A stretch of 35,832 bases of DNA from Escherichia phage vB_EcoM_APEC. Location: sequence record MT664721. One strand, written 5' to 3'. The notes beneath the pieces are model-generated. The model was not told the origin of the DNA. It saw only the letters and a program-made list of their open reading frames with translations, and ran no database searches. Positions 451-28,792 of this stretch are shown one piece after another; positions within the stretch are counted from its first letter, which is position 1, and each line of letters opens with the position of its first letter. The translations under genes were made by a program, and so were the position numbers.

Positions 451-906
451 ATGGGTTCTTCAGCAGCAGCAATTATGCAAGGCGCTCAGGGCATAGTACA
501 GGGGGTTGGTCTTTATCAGGAAGGACGAGCCGCAGATAAACAATCGAAAGTTGATGCGGAACTGTATCAATCAGCAGCACGAGTAGAGGCTAAAAAGATT
601 CGTGAAGCCGCAGCCAATCAAAAGTCATCTGCAATCGCACAGGCCGCAGAGAATGGACTGGATGTAAGCACAGGCACACCTGTTGTGGTGAATGACTACA
701 TCACACAGCAGTCAGAACAGGATGCATGGATGACCATATTGAATGGTCGCGAGGCTGCATCAGTAACAAGACAGCAGGGTAAGGCAGCACGGCGAGCAGG
801 AACATGGGGCTTTGTTTCTTCTGCTACAGGTGGCTTGCTTGCTGCCAAGCAGACTTTAGATACAGCTAAGTCACAAAAAAGACAGACAGCACTTTCAAAG
901 GGGTAA
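451..906 (+). CDS. hypothetical virion protein (gp14-like position)
   Basis: ATG at 451 preceded by GGAG at 439-442; Ala/Gln-rich 152 aa; assigned by position only. The track's upstream extension overlaps the previous gene. Confidence 0.45.
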   Translation: MGSSAAAIMQGAQGIVQGVGLYQEGRAADKQSKVDAELYQSAARVEAKKIREAAANQKSSAIAQAAENGLDVSTGTPVVVNDYITQQSEQDAWMTILNGREAASVTRQQGKAARRAGTWGFVSSATGGLLAAKQTLDTAKSQKRQTALSKG

Positions 907-909
907 GTT

Positions 910-2949
910 ATGGCGCGTATACCGTTGGGTAATTTTGGCAATGTTCGGCCACAGAATACAAATGCTCAGGCATCTGGTGCTGGTGCTCCTTATCAGGCTG
1001 CGGCTCAGGTCTTGAGTGCAGGTGCTAATCTTGTTGGAGCTAATTATACCAATCAGCTTCGAGAACAGAATATTGTAGACCAGATTCAAGAACGTGATGA
1101 ACGTCTTAAATTTGTTGGAATATCAAGTAAAACCGCTGCTGATATTTCCCTGCTTGATGATGACTTGACCACAAAGGTAAATGCTGGCGAGTTGAATCTT
1201 GAACAGTCTATTCAGCAACGACAGGACGGTGTTAAGGCAATTAAAGAGCGATATGCTGCTGATGTACCACAACGCTTTCAAAAGAATTTTGAGCAATGGG
1301 CTGATGTAACGGCTTATGAAAGTTCTTCAAAGCTTGCACCAGTTGTCCAGCAGATGAAGCAAAAGGAAAACCTTCTGGCGGTTGATGAAACCATTGATAA
1401 TGCACTCAAGGTAGGTGACAAGGCTCAATTCATGGCTTTGACCACTCAGGCATTAGAAGCATCGGGGCTACCTTCAAACATTAAACAACAGCGCTTACTT
1501 GAGGCTCAGACGCGTTGGGACAAGAATAGTGCATCAACTGAACTGATTGCCCTTTCAGATGCAGGGGACATAGAAGGCATTAACCAGAAATTCAGCAAAG
1601 AGGAGTTAATCAAGAACTATCCTAACCTTTCTGCTGAAAATATCTTGCAATTTCAGGAGTCAGCAGGACGAGAAGCTGATAGAATCGCGCGCGCAAAAGA
1701 AGTAGAAGAGGCCAAACGGATTAACCTTGCTGGACAGGTATTCAATGACTTTAAATCTGCCGTGCTTACTGGACGTGCTTTAACGCCAGAGCTTCAAGAG
1801 AACACACTAGCTGCGGTTCGCGGTACTGAGTATGAAGCAGAGTTTCAGTTTTATCAGCAGCAATCTAAAAACTTTGGCAAGTTCCAGAACATGAGTACAT
1901 CGGCTCAGCTTGCAGAGATCAATGCAATCAAGGCCAATCTGAAGAACAGTAAGTCAAGTGACCCTCAGACAGAAGAAAAGATACTCGGCGTTTATGAGAA
2001 CATCTATTCTGAGAAACTGAATACTATCCGCAATGACCCATCGCAAGCGGTTCGAGAGGCAGGGGTGAGAGTTCAACCTGTTACAGCAGTGCAAATTGTT
2101 GCCAATCCGCGAGCAGCAGCGGCAAGTATTGTTGAGAATGGTATCAGTCAAATGTCCCTGAAAGATGCCAATGTTTCATTAAAGCCGATTCCTGCTGAAA
2201 ACCTTCCTGAAGCTAAACAGGCATGGAATAAATTAGGCGTTGATGGAAAGCTGAATATGATTAGCGAAATGATTCGTGGTACCAGAAACGTGCCGAATGG
2301 GCCCAAAATTTGGGGTTCTGCACTTGGTCAATTGGCTGATGGCGATTTGTCCTATGTCATGGCTGGCGTTGCACGGATGAATGGCTATAGATCACAAAAG
2401 GGTGAGGATGTTGCAACAGCGATTGTGAGTGGTACCCAACTTCTGAAAAACAAGCAATTTGTCATGCCTAAAGAAGATGACATGCGAAAAGAGTTCAACA
2501 AGTATGTTGGTGGTGCTGTCACCGGAACGGATGCCAATACAATGTACTCGGCATTTAAATCATTGTATGCAAGTTCACTAAGCACTCAGGGGTTAACTCA
2601 TGAAGCCAAGGACGAGAAACCAATCTCAAGCGTACTGAATACGGCATTAAGTCTGGCAACTGGTGGCATGTATACTCAGGGTGACTTTAAAAATTATGTC
2701 GGTGGAAAGATTGAGGACTGGAAGGTATCAAAACCTTATGGCATGAGAGATGACCGTTTTGAGGCACACATTGAAGGTATGTATAAGGGACTGGCTAAGG
2801 CTAACAACGTCAGGGAGTCAGACCTTAAAACGCTAAGATTGCGACGCGCTGGCGTTAATCCGCGCAATGGTGCAATCGTGTATGATCTTATTGACGAGCG
2901 CGGTATTCCAAAGTACAGAGGAACAATGCCTAAAGGGGTTTATAAATGA
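910..2949 (+). CDS. internal virion (core) protein, 679 aa
   Basis: Large ORF in a tightly coupled run (start 4 nt after previous stop); position matches T7 gp15-like proteins. Confidence 0.55.
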   Translation: MARIPLGNFGNVRPQNTNAQASGAGAPYQAAAQVLSAGANLVGANYTNQLREQNIVDQIQERDERLKFVGISSKTAADISLLDDDLTTKVNAGELNLEQSIQQRQDGVKAIKERYAADVPQRFQKNFEQWADVTAYESSSKLAPVVQQMKQKENLLAVDETIDNALKVGDKAQFMALTTQALEASGLPSNIKQQRLLEAQTRWDKNSASTELIALSDAGDIEGINQKFSKEELIKNYPNLSAENILQFQESAGREADRIARAKEVEEAKRINLAGQVFNDFKSAVLTGRALTPELQENTLAAVRGTEYEAEFQFYQQQSKNFGKFQNMSTSAQLAEINAIKANLKNSKSSDPQTEEKILGVYENIYSEKLNTIRNDPSQAVREAGVRVQPVTAVQIVANPRAAAASIVENGISQMSLKDANVSLKPIPAENLPEAKQAWNKLGVDGKLNMISEMIRGTRNVPNGPKIWGSALGQLADGDLSYVMAGVARMNGYRSQKGEDVATAIVSGTQLLKNKQFVMPKEDDMRKEFNKYVGGAVTGTDANTMYSAFKSLYASSLSTQGLTHEAKDEKPISSVLNTALSLATGGMYTQGDFKNYVGGKIEDWKVSKPYGMRDDRFEAHIEGMYKGLAKANNVRESDLKTLRLRRAGVNPRNGAIVYDLIDERGIPKYRGTMPKGVYK

Positions 2950-17968: not shown

Positions 17969-18351
17969 ATTTATTTGATGCTGCGGAATATGCAGAAAGT
18001 TTAAGCAATTGCAAGAAACGTCCAGTCGGGTGCAGTCTTGCAATAAATGGTGAAGTGGTTGCCATTGGATTTAATCATGCAGACAGTAAATGTAAATGCA
18101 AAATGCATGAAGAAAATTCAAAGGTTGAACATGCTGAAATATGTTGTCTGAAGCATTACGAGTTTCTAAAACAGGACTGTTCAGAATTGGCAGTGACTTA
18201 CATCTGTTGCCTGAATTGCTCTAAAGAAATCGTAAAGCGTGGCATTAAGAAGGTGTACTACCGCGACCATAGACCCGAAACAGACAAACAGTTAGGCATT
18301 AACTATTTAAAATCACACAATGTAGAGGTATCGAACCAATGGAACAGTTAA
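17965..18351 (+). CDS. cytidine/deoxycytidylate deaminase-like zinc-binding protein
   Basis: HAE motif followed by CCLNC (PC..C-like) at the spacing typical of CMP/dCMP deaminases. Confidence 0.55.
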   Translation: MNLFDAAEYAESLSNCKKRPVGCSLAINGEVVAIGFNHADSKCKCKMHEENSKVEHAEICCLKHYEFLKQDCSELAVTYICCLNCSKEIVKRGIKKVYYRDHRPETDKQLGINYLKSHNVEVSNQWNS

Positions 18352-18866
18352 TTAAACAGATTGAACAATGGGCAGAAGATCGGAATATTATTAATGGGAG
18401 CAAACCAATTGACCAAGCTATGAAACTGTTTTCAGAATTTGGCGAACTCGCAGACAATGTAGGGAAGGGTCGTGATTGCCGCGATGATATTGGCGATGTT
18501 TTTGTTGTGCTGACTATTATGGCGAAGCAATTAAATCTTAACATCAAAGGTATCGAAATTGTTAAATCTGAATCTAAGCCAATATTTAACTTAAAAAATA
18601 TGGTTGTTGACCTAGGGATGTCTTTAAATTATTTTTCTCGTTCAGAAAACCAATTAAACTTAAAAAATGCGGTTAATGAGTTACAAACAATTTCTGCAAT
18701 TTATGGTTATGATTTAAAAGAATGCGTCCAAATCGCCTACAACGACATTAAGGACAGAAAAGGTATTTTATGGAATGGGGTATTTGTAAAAGAAAGTGAT
18801 TTGAGTTATAATGCTTGTGTTGAAGCTTATAGAGAATCGCTAAGTGAGAAAAACACAGAAAATTAA
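18339..18866 (+). CDS. MazG-like nucleoside triphosphate pyrophosphohydrolase
   Basis: FSEFGELADNV...DDIGDVFVVL matches the MazG E..GE...D..GD pattern. Confidence 0.55.
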   Translation: MEQLIKQIEQWAEDRNIINGSKPIDQAMKLFSEFGELADNVGKGRDCRDDIGDVFVVLTIMAKQLNLNIKGIEIVKSESKPIFNLKNMVVDLGMSLNYFSRSENQLNLKNAVNELQTISAIYGYDLKECVQIAYNDIKDRKGILWNGVFVKESDLSYNACVEAYRESLSEKNTEN

Positions 18867-19497
18867 TATTATTGGTAGTAGGTTTGGCAACCTCGTAGTG
18901 CTAAGCGAGGTTGCTGAAAGAAACAAGAATGGTCATATTTTATATACTTGTGAGTGTGATTGTGGAAACAAAAAAAACATACTAGGGTCTTCATTAAGGC
19001 AGAAGCTTACGACTTCTTGCGGCTGTGTTCATAAAAAAAAGATAACAAAACACGGAATGGATGGAACTAAGGTTTATAGAACTTGGGTTGGAATGAGGAA
19101 TAGATGCAACAACCCAAATAATAGAAGATTTCACGATTATGGTGGCAGAGGTATTTCTGTTTGCAATGAGTGGAATAACTCTTTTGATGCGTTTTATTCG
19201 GATATGGGAGAACCAAAGCCAAATCAATCTATAGAACGGATAGACAACTCAAAACCATATTGCAAAGAAAATTGTGTATGGGCAACTAACAAACAACAGT
19301 GTAATAACAGGAGAAGCTCAGTGGTTGTTTATTTTGATGGTATTGAGATGACAGTAGAGGAATACTCAAAAAAAGTAGGCTTGTCAGTATCAGGGGCAAG
19401 AAAAAAAGTGATTCGAGAATTTACTAGATTTGGGAACGTATTCATCAAAGAATCTGACCCAGCCTATGCGGATGCTTGCAAGGAGCTGGGCAAATGA
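18844..19497 (+). CDS. HNH-family-like nuclease motif protein, 217 aa
   Basis: Cys-rich; YRTWVGMRNRCNNP...YGGRGISVCNEW...IERIDNSKPY..NCVWAT..QQCNNRR recalls phage HNH-like proteins; family assignment uncertain, start codon uncertain. Confidence 0.4.
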   Translation: MRKTQKINIIGSRFGNLVVLSEVAERNKNGHILYTCECDCGNKKNILGSSLRQKLTTSCGCVHKKKITKHGMDGTKVYRTWVGMRNRCNNPNNRRFHDYGGRGISVCNEWNNSFDAFYSDMGEPKPNQSIERIDNSKPYCKENCVWATNKQQCNNRRSSVVVYFDGIEMTVEEYSKKVGLSVSGARKKVIREFTRFGNVFIKESDPAYADACKELGK

Positions 19498-19762: not shown

Positions 19763-19942
19763 ATGAAAAGCAAAATGACAGCAGCCATGTGGCTTGCTAA
19801 GATTCAATCTGAATGTAAGCACTTTTGGGTTCACGATAGTATGGGCTATCAAAAGAAGTGCAGCAGATGTGGAAAAGTGGAGCAACTTAAATTAACTACG
19901 CAATATTCAAAAACTTTTAAAGAAAGCTGGAATATTTATTAA
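19763..19942 (+). CDS. small Cys/His-rich protein, 59 aa
   Basis: ATG at 19763 with AGGAG upstream; ECKH...CSRCG pattern; below track cutoff; followed by a terminator. Confidence 0.35.
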   Translation: MKSKMTAAMWLAKIQSECKHFWVHDSMGYQKKCSRCGKVEQLKLTTQYSKTFKESWNIY

Positions 19943-19982
19943 AGTTTAGTTATATTGCAATAACTCACTTAAACCCTTTCCA

Positions 19983-20890: not shown

Positions 20891-21078
20891 CACCTGAAGA
20901 AATCAGAAAGAAAGCGCCAGAGGGAGCGACGCATTATATGAAGTCAATCATATTTTTGGATAGCGTTGACCTAATAACATATTTCAAGTGCGAAAATGGT
21001 AAATTCTTTGAATACTTCGCTCATCATTTCGCTAGGTACGAAACTGGTGTTCACCCAACCTTGATTAAGCCCCTCTAG
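20887..21078 (+). CDS. hypothetical protein, 63 aa (paralog of 14096..14293)
   Basis: Shared N- and C-terminal motifs with the minus-strand 65 aa protein; stop codon lies in the loop of the terminator hairpin. Confidence 0.5.
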   Translation: MTPEEIRKKAPEGATHYMKSIIFLDSVDLITYFKCENGKFFEYFAHHFARYETGVHPTLIKPL

Positions 21079-21090
21079 GGGCTTTTTATT
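21067..21090 (+). terminator. rho-independent terminator
   Basis: Hairpin AAGCCCC-TCTA-GGGGCTT followed by TTTTTATTTG. Confidence 0.65.
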
Positions 21091-21206
21091 TGCCCTTTAT
21101 ATTAGTTTTTCTTATTAATTTTAATTTAATTAATAAAAATTATTTATTTTACTTGTCACAATAAGATTAATAAAATAACCATATTGTTACTACCATCGAG
21201 GATAAG

Positions 21207-21437
21207 ATGATTTTACAAAAGCCTTTATTTTGGCACTGGTGCAAACAAGAAACTGGAAATATAGCATATTTGGCTAGAGAGTTAGGCGTAAGCCGAACAT
21301 TTGTTTCATTTCTTGTTAGTGGTAAAAAGCCCATACCTCTTGAACATATACCGAAGATTAAACAAGTAACTGGTCTAAAAGCCAAAGAATTGCGACCTGA
21401 TGTTTATGAAATTTTTAAGGATGATTTAGATGACTGA
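21207..21437 (+). CDS. Cro/YdaS-like helix-turn-helix DNA-binding protein
   Basis: GNIAYLARELGVSRTFVSFLVSGKKPIP resembles Cro/YdaS-type HTH regulators; first gene after the AT-rich intergenic region, upstream of the replication genes. Confidence 0.55.
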   Translation: MILQKPLFWHWCKQETGNIAYLARELGVSRTFVSFLVSGKKPIPLEHIPKIKQVTGLKAKELRPDVYEIFKDDLDD

Positions 21438-21642
21438 AATGCCAAAAGATGCCTTGTTCTTTATGAACTGGTTTGAAAAAGAATATCCAGAATTTGTAAA
21501 TCAGTATGGTCAGGTCAAAGGATTTTATGATCAATCCTCTGATGAGTTCCAGATTGAGGAAATACAGGATGCATATATCGAAAGAAAGAAAGGCAATGAG
21601 CCGTTACCCATGTATTTTGGCGACAGTGGTCAGTTTAGATAA
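21430..21642 (+). CDS. hypothetical protein, 70 aa
   Basis: Coupled ORF between the HTH gene and the replication initiator. Confidence 0.45.
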   Translation: MTEMPKDALFFMNWFEKEYPEFVNQYGQVKGFYDQSSDEFQIEEIQDAYIERKKGNEPLPMYFGDSGQFR

Positions 21643-21651
21643 GGAAAGGTT

Positions 21652-22389
21652 ATGAGTAATTGGATTCCAAATTCTTTTCAGCTTCCAAATTCATTGGTTG
21701 ATGAGAAGTACCTAGTAGAGCTAAAAGGTTCTCCATTAGCTATGTACATCTTCATTGTGAGGAAAACTAGAGGCTGGCAGAAAGAATGCGACAATATCAG
21801 CTTGTCTCAATTTGAGGAGTTTACCGGATATGGTAAAGATGCAGTTTTAACAGGAGTGAATAAGCTTGTTGAGCTTGGTTTAGTTAAGCGCGTTTCTTAT
21901 GAAAACAAGACTTCTTTTTACGAGTTAAATGATCAGCCATTACCTCCTGAAAAGATGCTGTCGGAAAATCCGCTAGCGGAAAATCCGACAAGTGCTGTCG
22001 GAAAATCCGACAAGTTGCTGTCGGAAAATCCGACACACAATAACAAAGAAAACAACTTTAAAAAAACAAATATAAATAACCATCCTAAAAAATTTGAGTT
22101 CAAGAAGGAATTACTAAAACTTGGGGCTAGTGAAGACTTAGTAAATGATTGGTTGATTGTTAGAGGGAATAAGAAGGCATCAAACACCCAAACTGCTTTC
22201 AATGGGTTTTTAAAACAAGTGAATGATTCTGGACTTGATGCTGAAACCGTTCTGAAAATCTGTGTTGATAAATCTTGGAGTGGCTTTAAGAAATCATGGT
22301 TATCGAATATTGATCTATCTGAATACCAGACAGAACCCAAGGAACCGAAGCAAGACAGTACATACGAAATTGAACTGGTGGAATATTAA
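21652..22389 (+). CDS. replication initiator, lambda O-like N-terminal domain
   Basis: LAMYIFIVRKTRGWQKECDNISLSQFEEFTG parallels the lambda O N-terminal domain (RKTYGW...SQ); iterons and an AT-rich tract lie inside the gene. Confidence 0.8.
   Translation: MSNWIPNSFQLPNSLVDEKYLVELKGSPLAMYIFIVRKTRGWQKECDNISLSQFEEFTGYGKDAVLTGVNKLVELGLVKRVSYENKTSFYELNDQPLPPEKMLSENPLAENPTSAVGKSDKLLSENPTHNNKENNFKKTNINNHPKKFEFKKELLKLGASEDLVNDWLIVRGNKKASNTQTAFNGFLKQVNDSGLDAETVLKICVDKSWSGFKKSWLSNIDLSEYQTEPKEPKQDSTYEIELVEY
21959..22035. repeat. four iterons (17 bp palindromic unit TGTCGGAAAATCCGACA), putative origin-binding sites
   Basis: Copies at about 21959, 21975, 21996 and 22019 (two perfect, two variant), followed by an AT-rich tract (22036-22100), all inside the O-like gene. 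Confidence 0.7.
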
Positions 22390-23693
22390 TGACTACATCA
22401 CTACATGCCATAAACTTTGAACAATACGTTCTATGTTTTCTAATGGACAATGAAAACGGATTAAGCTTTTTGAAAGTTAAACCCAAGGTTGAGCATTTCT
22501 ATGCTGACCGACACAAGGAGATATTCAAGGTAATTGAATCACTGGCATTTCAGGGAAAGCCTTATGATTATGAAATCGTCCTTGATCAACTAAAAACACT
22601 AGGTCTTGATTACAAGGTCGGGGGTGAGGAATATTTCAAGGAAATGATGAGTAACTTTGCAGCTCCTAGTGCTGTGAACGGATTTCATGAAAAACTGATA
22701 AAGCTGGAAGAATGCAGAAGGGTTGAGGAGGTAGGAAACAAGATTTTAGAACTATCACGAAACACTATGATTGATGATATGCCTAGAATCGCACAGGAGC
22801 TTGCTAGCGGCTTAGAAACTGTTTTTGTGAGTGACAGTACCATCAGCCTAACAGAAAGCGCTGCTGAAGCTCTGAGCGTCATTCACGATAAGTTGACTCA
22901 CAAGAAAGAAAACAGGGGAACAGCTTATGGCGTGAACACTGGTTTACGTGATCTTGATGCGACTCTAGGAGACATTGAGCCATCACATTTGTGTGTTATT
23001 GCTGCTGCCCCGGGTGGGGGTAAGACTACACTGGCACAAATGATTGCTTTGAATGCAGTGAAAAAGAATAATGCCCCTACAATTTTCTTTTCATGCGAAA
23101 TGGCACACTACGAGATAACCAACCGGATTATTAGTGCTGAGTGCAGAATCCCAATAGAGCGGATCCAGAACGGTACAATGGACAGTGATGATTACGAGCG
23201 CTGGGTTCAGACTACTGCAACGGTTTTCCCAAACTATAAGCTGGATATTGTAGACAAGGCAGCAATAAGCATTGGTGAAATCAGATCTGAAATACAGAGA
23301 ACAATTAAGCGACATGGGAAAGTTGGCTGTGTGATTGTTGATTACCTTCAGCTTGTTGAAGATAAAAATGCAAAGGATAACTTTGAAAAAATATCAAATG
23401 TTTCTACTGGTTTAAAACGAATAGCCAAAGACTTCAAGGTTCCGGTTATTGCTCTGTCGCAGCTAACGAAAGAGGCTCAAGGCAGAAGAATTACCATGTC
23501 GGATTTACGTGGTTCAGGCCAGATTTCACAAGATGCAGACAAGATCATTCTTTTGCATCCAGATGAAAAAACTCTAGGTCTGATTGTTGCGAATGTGGCA
23601 AAGAATCGGCAAGGACCTAAAGGTGAATCTCGGTTAATTTCCGCTTTTGATATATGTCAGTTTGGAAACATCAGACGGCAAGATGACTTTTAA
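22389..23693 (+). CDS. DnaB-family replicative DNA helicase
   Basis: DnaB-like N-terminal domain; Walker A AAPGGGKTTLAQ; RecA-like C-terminal region (DYLQLV, SQL). Confidence 0.85.
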   Translation: MTTSLHAINFEQYVLCFLMDNENGLSFLKVKPKVEHFYADRHKEIFKVIESLAFQGKPYDYEIVLDQLKTLGLDYKVGGEEYFKEMMSNFAAPSAVNGFHEKLIKLEECRRVEEVGNKILELSRNTMIDDMPRIAQELASGLETVFVSDSTISLTESAAEALSVIHDKLTHKKENRGTAYGVNTGLRDLDATLGDIEPSHLCVIAAAPGGGKTTLAQMIALNAVKKNNAPTIFFSCEMAHYEITNRIISAECRIPIERIQNGTMDSDDYERWVQTTATVFPNYKLDIVDKAAISIGEIRSEIQRTIKRHGKVGCVIVDYLQLVEDKNAKDNFEKISNVSTGLKRIAKDFKVPVIALSQLTKEAQGRRITMSDLRGSGQISQDADKIILLHPDEKTLGLIVANVAKNRQGPKGESRLISAFDICQFGNIRRQDDF

Positions 23694-23822
23694 TTTTAAA
23701 AACCAATGAGTAATGAGAGGAATATAAAATGTCAATTAAAGAAATCTGTCAGCACGAATATCAATATTCTTGGATTTATGATTCTTGGATGTGCATTCAT
23801 TGCGATAAATTAAAAAACAGTA

Positions 23823-23851
23823 TTGACTGAATTAATATTAAAGCATATAGT
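23823..23851 (+). promoter_or_regulatory. sigma70-like promoter (TTGACT, 17 nt, TATAGT)
   Basis: -35 TTGACT at 23823-23828 and -10 TATAGT at 23846-23851; GTGAGGA RBS and ATG at 23878 downstream. Confidence 0.5.
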
Positions 23852-23877
23852 TTGTATAAATTAGTGAGGACTAGATT

Positions 23878-24066
23878 ATGTTTAAAAAGTTACAAATTCA
23901 ATTAAATGACGCTATCCGTAAACAAGACGAGCTGGCTGTTAAACTGGCTGAAGCTCAAGACGATTTCCTTATTGCCAAGCTTGACGAATTGTATAAATCG
24001 GCTTCTGAATGGGTAGATTTATTGCAACGTCAAGTTAATCGCGAACAAAGAAGGGCCGCTAAATAA
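23878..24066 (+). CDS. hypothetical coiled-coil-like protein, 62 aa
   Basis: First ORF after the promoter; GTGAGGA RBS. Confidence 0.45.
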   Translation: MFKKLQIQLNDAIRKQDELAVKLAEAQDDFLIAKLDELYKSASEWVDLLQRQVNREQRRAAK

Positions 24067-27058: not shown

Positions 27059-27147
27059 AGAAAGCTGCCCTTTATGGTTTGGTTCGATTCTTTTTATGGT
27101 GGTCTTTGTTCTGTTTTTATTATTGGCTTATAAGGTGGCAGGTTGAT

Positions 27148-27780
27148 ATGGAAGATTTTAAAATTTTTGTAAAAGATGAAGCGGCAAGCAAGGAAGCCCA
27201 GGAGTTGTTTTTTGGGGTTGGTTTTAGGGGTGGTAAATATAAAGGTTATGATGGGAATAAGCAAAAAACAGAATATAGGTTGTGGGCAAATATGCTTAAG
27301 AGGTGTTACTCGAGATCATCTCAATTAGCTAGACCATCCTATATTGGTTGTGAGGTCTCTGATAACTTTAAAGAATACGATTACTTTTACGAGTGGTGTC
27401 AAAATCAAACCGGATTCAATGAAAAAGGATTTCAACTTGATAAGGACCTATTAAAAAAAGGGAATAGGATTTACTCTGAGGATTTATGCTTGTTTTTGCC
27501 AAGTGAAATCAATACCGCACTAATACTCAGAAAATCAAAAAGAGGTAAATATCCAATAGGTGTTACTTACTCAGAAAGAGATAGATTATTTGCATCAACA
27601 TTAACTATGTATGGGAAAAACACTCATGTTGGATATTTTAAAGATGAGATGTCGGCATTTTTGAAATACAAGGAGGTTAAAGAGGCCTATCTAAAAGAAC
27701 TCGCCAATCTATACAAGGAACAAATTAACCCTCTTGCGTATCTTGCTTTGTTGAACTACGAGGTATCCATTAATGACTAA
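27148..27780 (+). CDS. hypothetical protein with HNH-like motif, 210 aa
   Basis: ATG at 27148 with AAGGTGG upstream (the track's longer version begins in a hydrophobic out-of-context stretch); YRLWANMLKRC motif similar to the 18844 gene product. Confidence 0.45.
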   Translation: MEDFKIFVKDEAASKEAQELFFGVGFRGGKYKGYDGNKQKTEYRLWANMLKRCYSRSSQLARPSYIGCEVSDNFKEYDYFYEWCQNQTGFNEKGFQLDKDLLKKGNRIYSEDLCLFLPSEINTALILRKSKRGKYPIGVTYSERDRLFASTLTMYGKNTHVGYFKDEMSAFLKYKEVKEAYLKELANLYKEQINPLAYLALLNYEVSIND

Positions 27781-28361: not shown

Positions 28362-28718
28362 ATGATTAAACCTAAATGGGGTGGTTATAAAATCCCTGCA
28401 TTAAAAGAGAAGTGTAATTGTATGAGACGAGCAGCAAAGATAGACGAGAATCAACCAGAGATTGTAGATGCATTGCGAGCTATGGGGTGTAGTGTGACAA
28501 ACCTTTCAGCGGTTGGAAATGGATGTCCTGATATTTTGGTTGGTTTTCGTGGAATCAATCTGCTATTTGAAATTAAAGACGGTAAGAAGCCGAAGTCTAA
28601 GCGCCAATTAACATCAGATCAAGTGAAGTGGCATACCGCATGGAATGGTAAGGTTTATATCGTGGAAAGTGTTGAACAGGCTATTACTATTATTAATGAC
28701 CCGAATACTTATATATAA
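28362..28718 (+). CDS. VRR-NUC-like (PD-(D/E)xK) nuclease domain protein
   Basis: GCPDILVGF...LLFEIKDGK...QVKWH resembles the VRR-NUC motif arrangement; ATG at 28362 with GAGGTG upstream. Confidence 0.5.
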   Translation: MIKPKWGGYKIPALKEKCNCMRRAAKIDENQPEIVDALRAMGCSVTNLSAVGNGCPDILVGFRGINLLFEIKDGKKPKSKRQLTSDQVKWHTAWNGKVYIVESVEQAITIINDPNTYI

Positions 28719-28792
28719 ATATTTTTCATTAGTAATTTGCTGATTGTGTTAGTATATTTGTTTTAAGAATTAATCCTCACGGGTTAAGACTA

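Follow-up and report, generated by a model that had tools for sequence, protein, structure and literature searches.

A probable lambda/P22-type replication origin inside the O-like initiator gene of phage vB_EcoM_APEC

The replication origin of phage lambda contains four iterons of hyphenated symmetry, joined by adenines, and a 39-bp region of high AT content, while its initiator, the O protein, binds DNA with its N-terminal domain, which a flexible linker joins to a C-terminal domain that binds P (PMC6022878, PMC7466680). Lambda hybrids are also able to use the (18,12) module of phage P22 (PMC3349717). Here we describe a locus of similar design in Escherichia phage vB_EcoM_APEC (record MT664721, 35,832 nucleotides). 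The whole 35.8 kb stretch that was analysed is called the window hereafter; its mean GC content is 0.413, and coordinates are window positions. The window encodes a 245-amino-acid (aa) O-like replication initiator, whose gene carries four dyad-symmetric iterons immediately followed by an A-rich tract. Judging from the sequence and by analogy with the systems above, this array and tract very probably form the phage's replication origin, of lambda/P22 type and embedded in the initiator gene. As such, it would be an ordinary new example of a known origin type, with a new iteron specificity.

The array (21959-22035; sequence of the region CTGTCGGAAAATCCGCTAGCGGAAAATCCGACAAGTGCTGTCGGAAAATCCGACAAGTTGCTGTCGGAAAATCCGACACACAATAAC...) covers codons 103-128 of the 245 in the O-like gene, between the parts that code for the N- and C-terminal domains. 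Its unit is a 6+5+6 hyphenated dyad with an A4 centre, TGTCGG-AAAAT-CCGACA. The corresponding 17-mer, TGTCGGAAAATCCGACA, is exact in iterons 3 and 4 and has two mismatches in each of iterons 1 and 2, which overlap by 2 bp and carry one degenerate arm each (Table 1). Even when up to three mismatches are allowed, the 17-mer has no site in the window beyond these four, for a chance expectation of 0.11, and the observed count was reached in 0 of 100 shuffles. This search and the shuffles confirm the four dyad-symmetric copies proposed in an earlier note made from the bare sequence. The note had put their phasing at 17-23 bp, but the measured start-to-start spacings are 15, 22 and 23, with the three AT-proximal units about two helical turns apart. 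The array is also by far the top tandem repeat of the window according to Tandem Repeats Finder (TRF; score 111, runner-up 43), and the tandem-repeat search revealed no second local array anywhere in the window. DnaA boxes matching TTATCCACA or TTATNCACA were not found near the origin.

How the array is translated and how it diverges both show that it is selected as DNA and not as peptide. The four iterons are read in frames 1, 1, 2 and 1. Three of them yield (S/A)ENP and iteron 3 yields AVGKSDK (VGKSD), so that the low-complexity repeat read earlier as LSENP...ENP...SENP is only partial, holding for three copies and failing in the one that lies in another frame. We then compared codons between the window and the Acinetobacter phages Highwayman (L001) and IME284 (L002), to which it is 76% identical in nucleotides overall. 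Third codon positions are identical at 25/26 sites (96%) in the array, against 54% and 49% in the parts coding for the N- and C-domain, respectively. None of the 26 array codons shows a synonymous change, compared with 71 of the 197 flanking codons (Fisher p = 8e-6 and 3e-5). Those changes that do occur in the array are all non-synonymous and fall in the outer 3' arms (CCGACA to CAGACA or CCGCTA), leaving the core CGGAAAATC invariant. In other words, amino acids change (P to Q, D to A) while synonymous sites stay frozen. In other phages, the unit is found in all three frames (L304) and on the opposite strand (L301). Because its copies are read in two frames and accept no synonymous change, the array is under purifying selection at the DNA level.

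The likeness to ori-lambda is close. There too, the iterons are hyphenated inverted repeats with an A-rich centre (of 18-19 bp; four in lambda and six in Stx phages), they lie about 20-24 bp apart and are followed by an A-rich tract of about 40 bp that starts with ACACA, and the whole origin sits in the linker between the N-terminal DNA-binding and the C-terminal domains. The annotated lambda ITN1-4 are 18-bp 6+5+6 dyads (ATCCCTCAAAACGAGGGA and variants) with start spacings of 20, 24 and 23, and the tail behind them reads ACACAAAAGACACTATTACAAAAGAAAAAAG (ACACAAAAGACACTATT...). The N-domain of lambda O belongs to Phage_rep_O as well and is 35% identical to that of the window over 49 aa. Thus, at the level of sequence, every feature of ori-lambda is present, which supports the arrangement that the earlier note had proposed. 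However, the arms differ (TGTCGG/CCGACA in the window, TCCCTC/GAGGGA in lambda), the first two units of the window abut, with starts 15 bp apart, the C-terminal domain bears no relation to the P-binding domain of lambda O, and the downstream gene encodes a DnaB-like helicase where lambda has a P-like loader. The host, given as Acinetobacter for the window phage, also differs. The lack of a lambda-O-type C-domain and of a P-type loader separates the window from lambda proper, not from the wider lambdoid/P22 family.

In module layout, an initiator together with its own DnaB-like helicase, the window is in fact closest to P22, whose gp12 is a DnaB analogue. In Salmonella phage MG40 (P22-like, Lederbergvirus; L317), the gene of the O-like initiator gp18 contains four internal TTTACCGAATCGGTAAA-like dyads with spacings of 20, 24 and 23, then an A-rich tail that opens with ACACAAAAGACA and in which ACACAAAAGACAATAT is repeated twice, and then a DnaB-like helicase gene that overlaps the initiator stop codon as it does in the window. 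MG40 gp18 aligns with the window initiator over the N-domain and linker only (26% over 140 aa, E 3e-7); its C-domain is unrelated and its iterons differ. The N-domain and the origin of the window are homologous to those of lambda and P22, and the C-domain is a different, widely shuffled module. The sequence just behind the iterons is conserved far more widely than the iterons themselves: ACACAAAAGACA(C/A)TAT is found in lambda, in the P22-like phage and in an unrelated metagenomic phage (L316); the window tail begins ACACACAATAACAAAG.

The nearest relatives are Acinetobacter phages of the genus Obolenskvirus (Highwayman, IME284, Ab31/59/65, YNAF, Acba_21), whose initiator is 78% identical to that of the window and whose modules are annotated as 'replication protein O' and 'replicative DNA helicase'. 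They carry four iterons at the same spacings (15, 22, 23), with small changes in the outer 3' arms, and the A-rich tract. The replication module, at about 76% nucleotide identity, is all that the window has in common with these myophages of about 45 kb, the genomes being otherwise unrelated; we found no annotated or published origin for Obolenskvirus phages. Further homologues of the initiator are mostly 'replication proteins' of Acinetobacter prophages. We left out the record of Acinetobacter phage Ab69 (L003, OR045356.1), whose replication region is annotated as many tiny open reading frames (ORFs) and whose iteron region looks frameshifted and degenerate, which suggests sequencing or assembly errors rather than biology. 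The origins of RepA_N plasmids and satellites and of Firmicutes phages with a 'replisome organizer' likewise combine a winged-helix initiator with iterons inside or beside its own gene, and one contig (L305; Pfam RepA_N 5.5e-25) carries GTCGGAAAATCAGAC-type units. The window protein matches Phage_rep_O, and neither RepA_N (PF06970) nor a plasmid Rep domain is among its Pfam matches; therefore, it resembles these origins in design and is not a member of their class.

Directly 3' of the last iteron lies the A/T-rich stretch that the earlier note had described. Between 22036 and 22100, GC content over 60 nucleotides (nt) drops to a minimum of 0.18, within the lowest 0.26% of all 60-nt windows, and the coding strand is strongly A-rich (A 38, T 14, G 3, C 10). 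The tract proper has a GC content of 0.18-0.25, and the least stable 40-mer begins at 22039. It also holds two 14-mers of the form AAAACAA(C/A)T(T/A)TAAA, detected by TRF at 22049-22076 (AAAACAACTTTAAA / AAAACAAATATAAA), and the P22-like MG40 locus has tandem 14-mers at its positions 1032-1059 (ACAAAAGACAATAT / ACAAAAGACAATAA); both pairs may be repeated unwinding elements. An inverted repeat at 22111-22144 was considered as an analogue of the palindrome in the right arm of the lambda origin. We take it to be a chance occurrence, because it lies in the conserved C-domain coding part and is not evident in relatives.

Comparison with the iteron arrays of related phages, which the earlier note had proposed as a check, reveals that iterons change together with the N-domain. 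When homologues are graded by N-domain identity, the arms of the repeat vary, whereas the A-rich centre, the last spacings (21-24) and the ACACA tail are kept. At 86% N-domain identity to the window (L310), the unit is GTCGG-AAAAT-C(C/A)G.., and at 73% (L306) GTCGG-AAAAT-CCGAC, both with start spacings of 15, 15, 22 and 23. It becomes GTCGG-AAAAA-CCGAC at 64% (L311; 33, 22, 23) and GTCGG-AAATA-CCGAC at 60% (L312), and then GTGGAG-AAAT-TCCAC at 50% (L313, L316), TATCA-AAATC-TGATA at 51% (L315) and CTACAG-AAA-CTGTAG at 41% (L314). In all these loci (L306, L310-L316), an A-rich ACACA(A/G).. tail with a GC content of 0.22-0.40 directly follows the iterons, and the tail of L316, ACACAAAAGACACTATTA, is nearly identical to that of lambda.

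The approximately 100 aa of the C-terminal domain form a conserved module, for which there is no Pfam family, found in 47 IMG/VR loci as well as in phage records. The 53 loci that share it fall into at least 24 N-domain clusters with differing repeat types; nearly all of them have a repeat array 50-150 nt upstream of the C-domain, with a sequence that varies by cluster and even by sub-cluster. The module has the signature KFxFKKxL...DW..VR..KKA.NT.TA.NGF...SW.GF, and its N-domain partners (loci L007-L054) include DUF1376/YdaU-like domains. The idea that the C-domain is tied to one specific partner was rejected: a DnaB-like helicase gene adjoins the initiator in 30 of the 53 related loci, and because the downstream genes vary, no partner specificity can be claimed.

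Iterons not only vary with the N-domain but also travel with it. Contig L009 (IMGVR_UViG_3300011883_000004) is 95-96% identical to the window over 21445-21641 and again from 22090 on, with a DnaB that is 99.5% identical; between 21641 and 22090, however, it encodes an N-domain of DUF1376 type that is unrelated to that of the window, carries repeats of its own and gains an additional ORF of 130 aa. The reciprocal case is L310, where the cassette is kept and the C-domain changes after about 22078; in L310 and in proteins P0019-P0037, the N-domain and the iteron-encoded linker are kept and joined to unrelated C-domains, and in L306, where N-domain and iterons are also kept, the C-domain has diverged to remote similarity only. 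No more than about 12 bp separate the swap junctions of L009 and L310, both of which fall where the A-rich tract ends on its 3' side (about 22078-22090), and thus the end of the unwinding tract marks a recombination boundary between initiator modules. The neighbouring genes do not follow the iterons: the Cro-like gene is absent from L001 and L002, although these share iterons with the window, and loci of three iteron types have a conserved phrog_5771 protein and DnaB. In these comparisons of sequence, only the O-like N-domain tracks the iterons.

The initiator itself has a single Pfam match, Phage_rep_O (PF04492) at aa 10-82 (E 1.5e-8, 35.5 bits against a curated cut-off of 28.7), and matches PHROG 18020/678, 'replication initiation O-like'. 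We modelled it with AlphaFold2 (AF2) from an alignment of 75 sequences; a single-sequence model, with a predicted local distance difference test score (pLDDT) of 49, was not used. In the model, aa 10-95 form a winged helix and aa 148-225 a helical C-domain, both with confidence, and between them aa 102-144 are disordered; this segment is encoded by the iterons and most of the A-rich tract. The iterons and the A-rich tract (aa 103-149) fall in the disordered linker (pLDDT < 50), in agreement with the published domain plan of lambda O (PMC6022878, PMC7466680) and with the earlier placing of the repeats between the N-terminal DNA-binding domain and the C-terminal part. A search of PDB sequences with the initiator gave no relative. 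In fold searches, the N-domain matched generic winged-helix proteins only and the C-domain matched nothing informative. We infer that the C-domain is a module that recruits the helicase or its loader; because it has no similarity to the C-termini of lambda O or P22 gp18 and its fold matches are uninformative, helicase recruitment by this domain is a conjecture.

How could such an origin work? By homology with lambda and P22, we envision that dimers of the winged-helix N-domain would bind the four dyad iterons, and that the phased A-tract centres would help to wrap or bend the DNA into an 'O-some'. The resulting stress would open the adjacent A-rich tract, and the C-terminal domain of the initiator may bring in the DnaB-like helicase that the phage itself encodes in the next gene. 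Transcripts of the operon that start at about 21148 would cross the origin, and this transcription may activate it.

Several observations weigh against this reading. The C-terminal domain lacks similarity to those of lambda O and P22 gp18, and the partners encoded downstream of it vary (DnaB-like, primase-helicase, IstB-like ATPase or small unknown proteins). The synonymous-site test draws on only three effectively independent close relatives, and literature searches on the motif and on Acinetobacter phage iterons returned no relevant paper. Finally, the A-rich tract is not the AT-richest place of the window, given that 60-nt GC falls to 0.07 in the intergenic region 21074-21197. The repeats could be true initiator-binding sites that serve mainly in autoregulation, copy control or handcuffing, or a relic, with the firing origin located elsewhere, for example in AT-rich intergenic DNA. 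An initiator that binds inside its own gene could indeed block transcription, and four regions are as AT-rich as the tract or more so (19884-19965, 21074-21197, 23686-23907, 28678-28777). Yet the window has no other repeat array, the AT-richness of 21074-21197 is accounted for by terminator-like and promoter-like sites, and iterons and tract stay together as a unit whose order, spacing and tail are fixed throughout the family, to which the experimentally defined origin of lambda belongs. We therefore regard a firing origin elsewhere as unlikely.

Could the repeats instead act as peptide, as RNA or as operators? They do encode a disordered linker, and three copies give (S/A)ENP, as a low-complexity linker selected as protein would have it. 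However, dyad symmetry is meaningless for a peptide, and the frame of iteron 3, the use of three frames in L304 and of the opposite strand in L301, and the frozen synonymous sites next to changing residues exclude a peptide repeat with no DNA function, which we consider very improbable. The palindromes might also form hairpins in mRNA or single-stranded DNA and so control how the initiator and helicase genes are translated or transcribed, all the more since a very stable fold is predicted for 21950-22045 (-41 kcal/mol, z = -7.2). But lambda ori iterons score alike (z = -7.1), and therefore this stability is a by-product of dyad repeats; moreover, the fold of the homologous segment in L001 is weak and pairs other bases (z = -2.6), none of the substitutions there is compensatory, and an Rfam scan gave no match (nor did a tRNA scan). 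Regulatory hairpins are, in consequence, highly unlikely. That the repeats are operators for another protein of the operon can be imagined because a Cro/YdaS-like helix-turn-helix (HTH) regulator is encoded 500 bp upstream of the array. This gene is missing from L001 and L002, which share the iterons, while the phrog_5771 protein and DnaB remain conserved across three iteron types to which only the O-like N-domain corresponds; for lack of co-variation, an operator for another regulator is excluded and deserves hardly any credence.

Table 1. Positions of the putative origin, the genes around it and the matching post-iteron sequences (window positions unless a locus is named; ".", no strand assigned)
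Feature	Position	Strand	Sequence, evidence or remark
O-like replication initiator gene, 245 aa, holding the origin	21652-22389	+	ORF list, Pfam, PHROG
Coding part of N-terminal winged-helix DNA-binding domain, aa 1-100	21652-21951	+	
Iteron 1	21959-21975	.	TGTCGGAAAATCCGCTA; 3' arm degenerate
Iteron 2	21974-21990	.	TAGCGGAAAATCCGACA; 5' arm degenerate; 2 bp shared with iteron 1
Iteron 3	21996-22012	.	TGTCGGAAAATCCGACA; perfect; different frame, VGKSD
Iteron 4	22019-22035	.	TGTCGGAAAATCCGACA; perfect; adjoins A-rich tract
A-rich low-stability tract, presumed DNA-unwinding element	22036-22089	.	starts CACAATAACAAAG
Conserved helical C-terminal domain	22090-22386	+	alignment; PHROG 6451/678/12556; pLDDT ~90
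Exchangeable cassette: N-domain coding part, iterons and A-rich tract	21642-22089	.	L009 and L310 comparisons
DnaB-like replicative helicase gene	22389-23693	+	Pfam DnaB_C 2.1e-62, DnaB 5.8e-15
YdaS/Cro-like HTH protein gene	21207-21437	+	Pfam YdaS_toxin 1.7e-11, HTH_3
phrog_5771 protein gene	21430-21642	+	phrog_5771 1.4e-30
Promoter-like site upstream of operon	21148-21176	+	consensus scan, 9/12 matches; pattern match only
Post-iteron sequence, window	22034-22050		
Post-iteron sequence, lambda (L057)	520-540		
Post-iteron sequence, MG40 (L317)	1030-1060		
Post-iteron sequence, L316	about 938-960		

The initiator gene is the third of an operon placed behind the promoter-like site, in the order cro/YdaS-like, phrog_5771, O-like and DnaB-like, with the start of the helicase gene overlapping the initiator stop codon; the predicted transcript would cross the origin. 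A terminator-like hairpin (21067-21084) precedes the promoter-like site. The intergenic region 21067-21197 that contains both is extremely AT-rich (60-nt GC down to 0.07) and probably represents the early-right control region of this operon. By its gene content, the window looks like a complete or nearly complete podovirus-like phage genome of about 36 kb. It encodes tail tubular proteins A and B, portal, major head protein, large terminase and endolysin, as well as an Erf-like annealing protein and an exonuclease on the minus strand. The window ORFs that were scanned revealed no integrase. Interspersed among the early genes are two HNH endonuclease-like genes (18844-19497 and 27079-27780; phrog_374, phrog_953) and a MazG-like pyrophosphatase gene (18339-18866).

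We also looked for the repeat beyond close relatives. Exact scans of viral and genome contigs with the single 14-mer TGTCGGAAAATCCG gave only single chance matches among the matches listed. A search of IMG/VR with the two-copy pattern GTCGGAAAATC...GTCGGAAAATC gave 11 further loci (L298-L308), 10 of them distinct, since L300 and L302 are the same in sequence; L303 is the only one whose array is not located within or next to the gene of a winged-helix, initiator-like protein. The control motifs GTACGGAAAAA and GTGGAGAAATT behave similarly. Across these loci, the GTCGGAAAATC(C)GAC unit occurs in up to three frames or on the opposite strand, and its arrays accompany RepA_N in L305, a MarR-like protein in the GC-rich L308, stand-alone winged-helix proteins of 110 aa in L298 and L299, and a 647-aa protein without family match in L300/L302. 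In many phage contigs with Firmicutes-like (DnaD-like) initiators (L319, L321-L330), dyad arrays of the GGTACGGAAAAAA(T)TCC(C/G) or GGTGGAGAAATTACACC type are found in the linker-coding part of initiator-like genes and are followed by AT-rich DNA. Embedded origins in which an A-tract lies between a G-rich and a C-rich arm appear to be widespread.

Could all lambda-type embedded origins belong to one ancient homologous family, with a limited and readable 'iteron vocabulary'? The CGGAAAA-centred dyad (GTCGGAAAATCCGAC) recurs in arrays with very divergent winged-helix initiators (Phage_rep_O at 28-73% identity, RepA_N, MarR-like and the 110-aa proteins). From lambda and P22 to Acinetobacter-type phages, the unwinding tract keeps its ACACAAAAGACA start. 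In addition, the first residues of the recognition helix (GYGKDAV, G(L/M)SRKT, KLPVKR) vary in step with the arms of the iterons. We hold this idea tentatively, as possible but somewhat doubtful.

The locus described here leaves the understanding of how lambda-type origins work unchanged. What it brings is a precise and testable annotation of the probable origin, with iterons, unwinding tract and cognate domain, that applies to a number of related Acinetobacter phages, among them Obolenskvirus phages isolated on clinical A. baumannii. The N-domain passes from phage to phage together with iterons and A-rich tract, as a single cassette; this accounts for the mosaic boundaries of these genomes and predicts between which phages competition or cross-reaction in replication would occur. 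The series of N-domain and iteron pairings compiled here is a starting point for a recognition code of O-like initiators. If lambda-type embedded origins do form one family with a shared iteron vocabulary, origin specificity would become predictable from sequence across many phages and plasmids.

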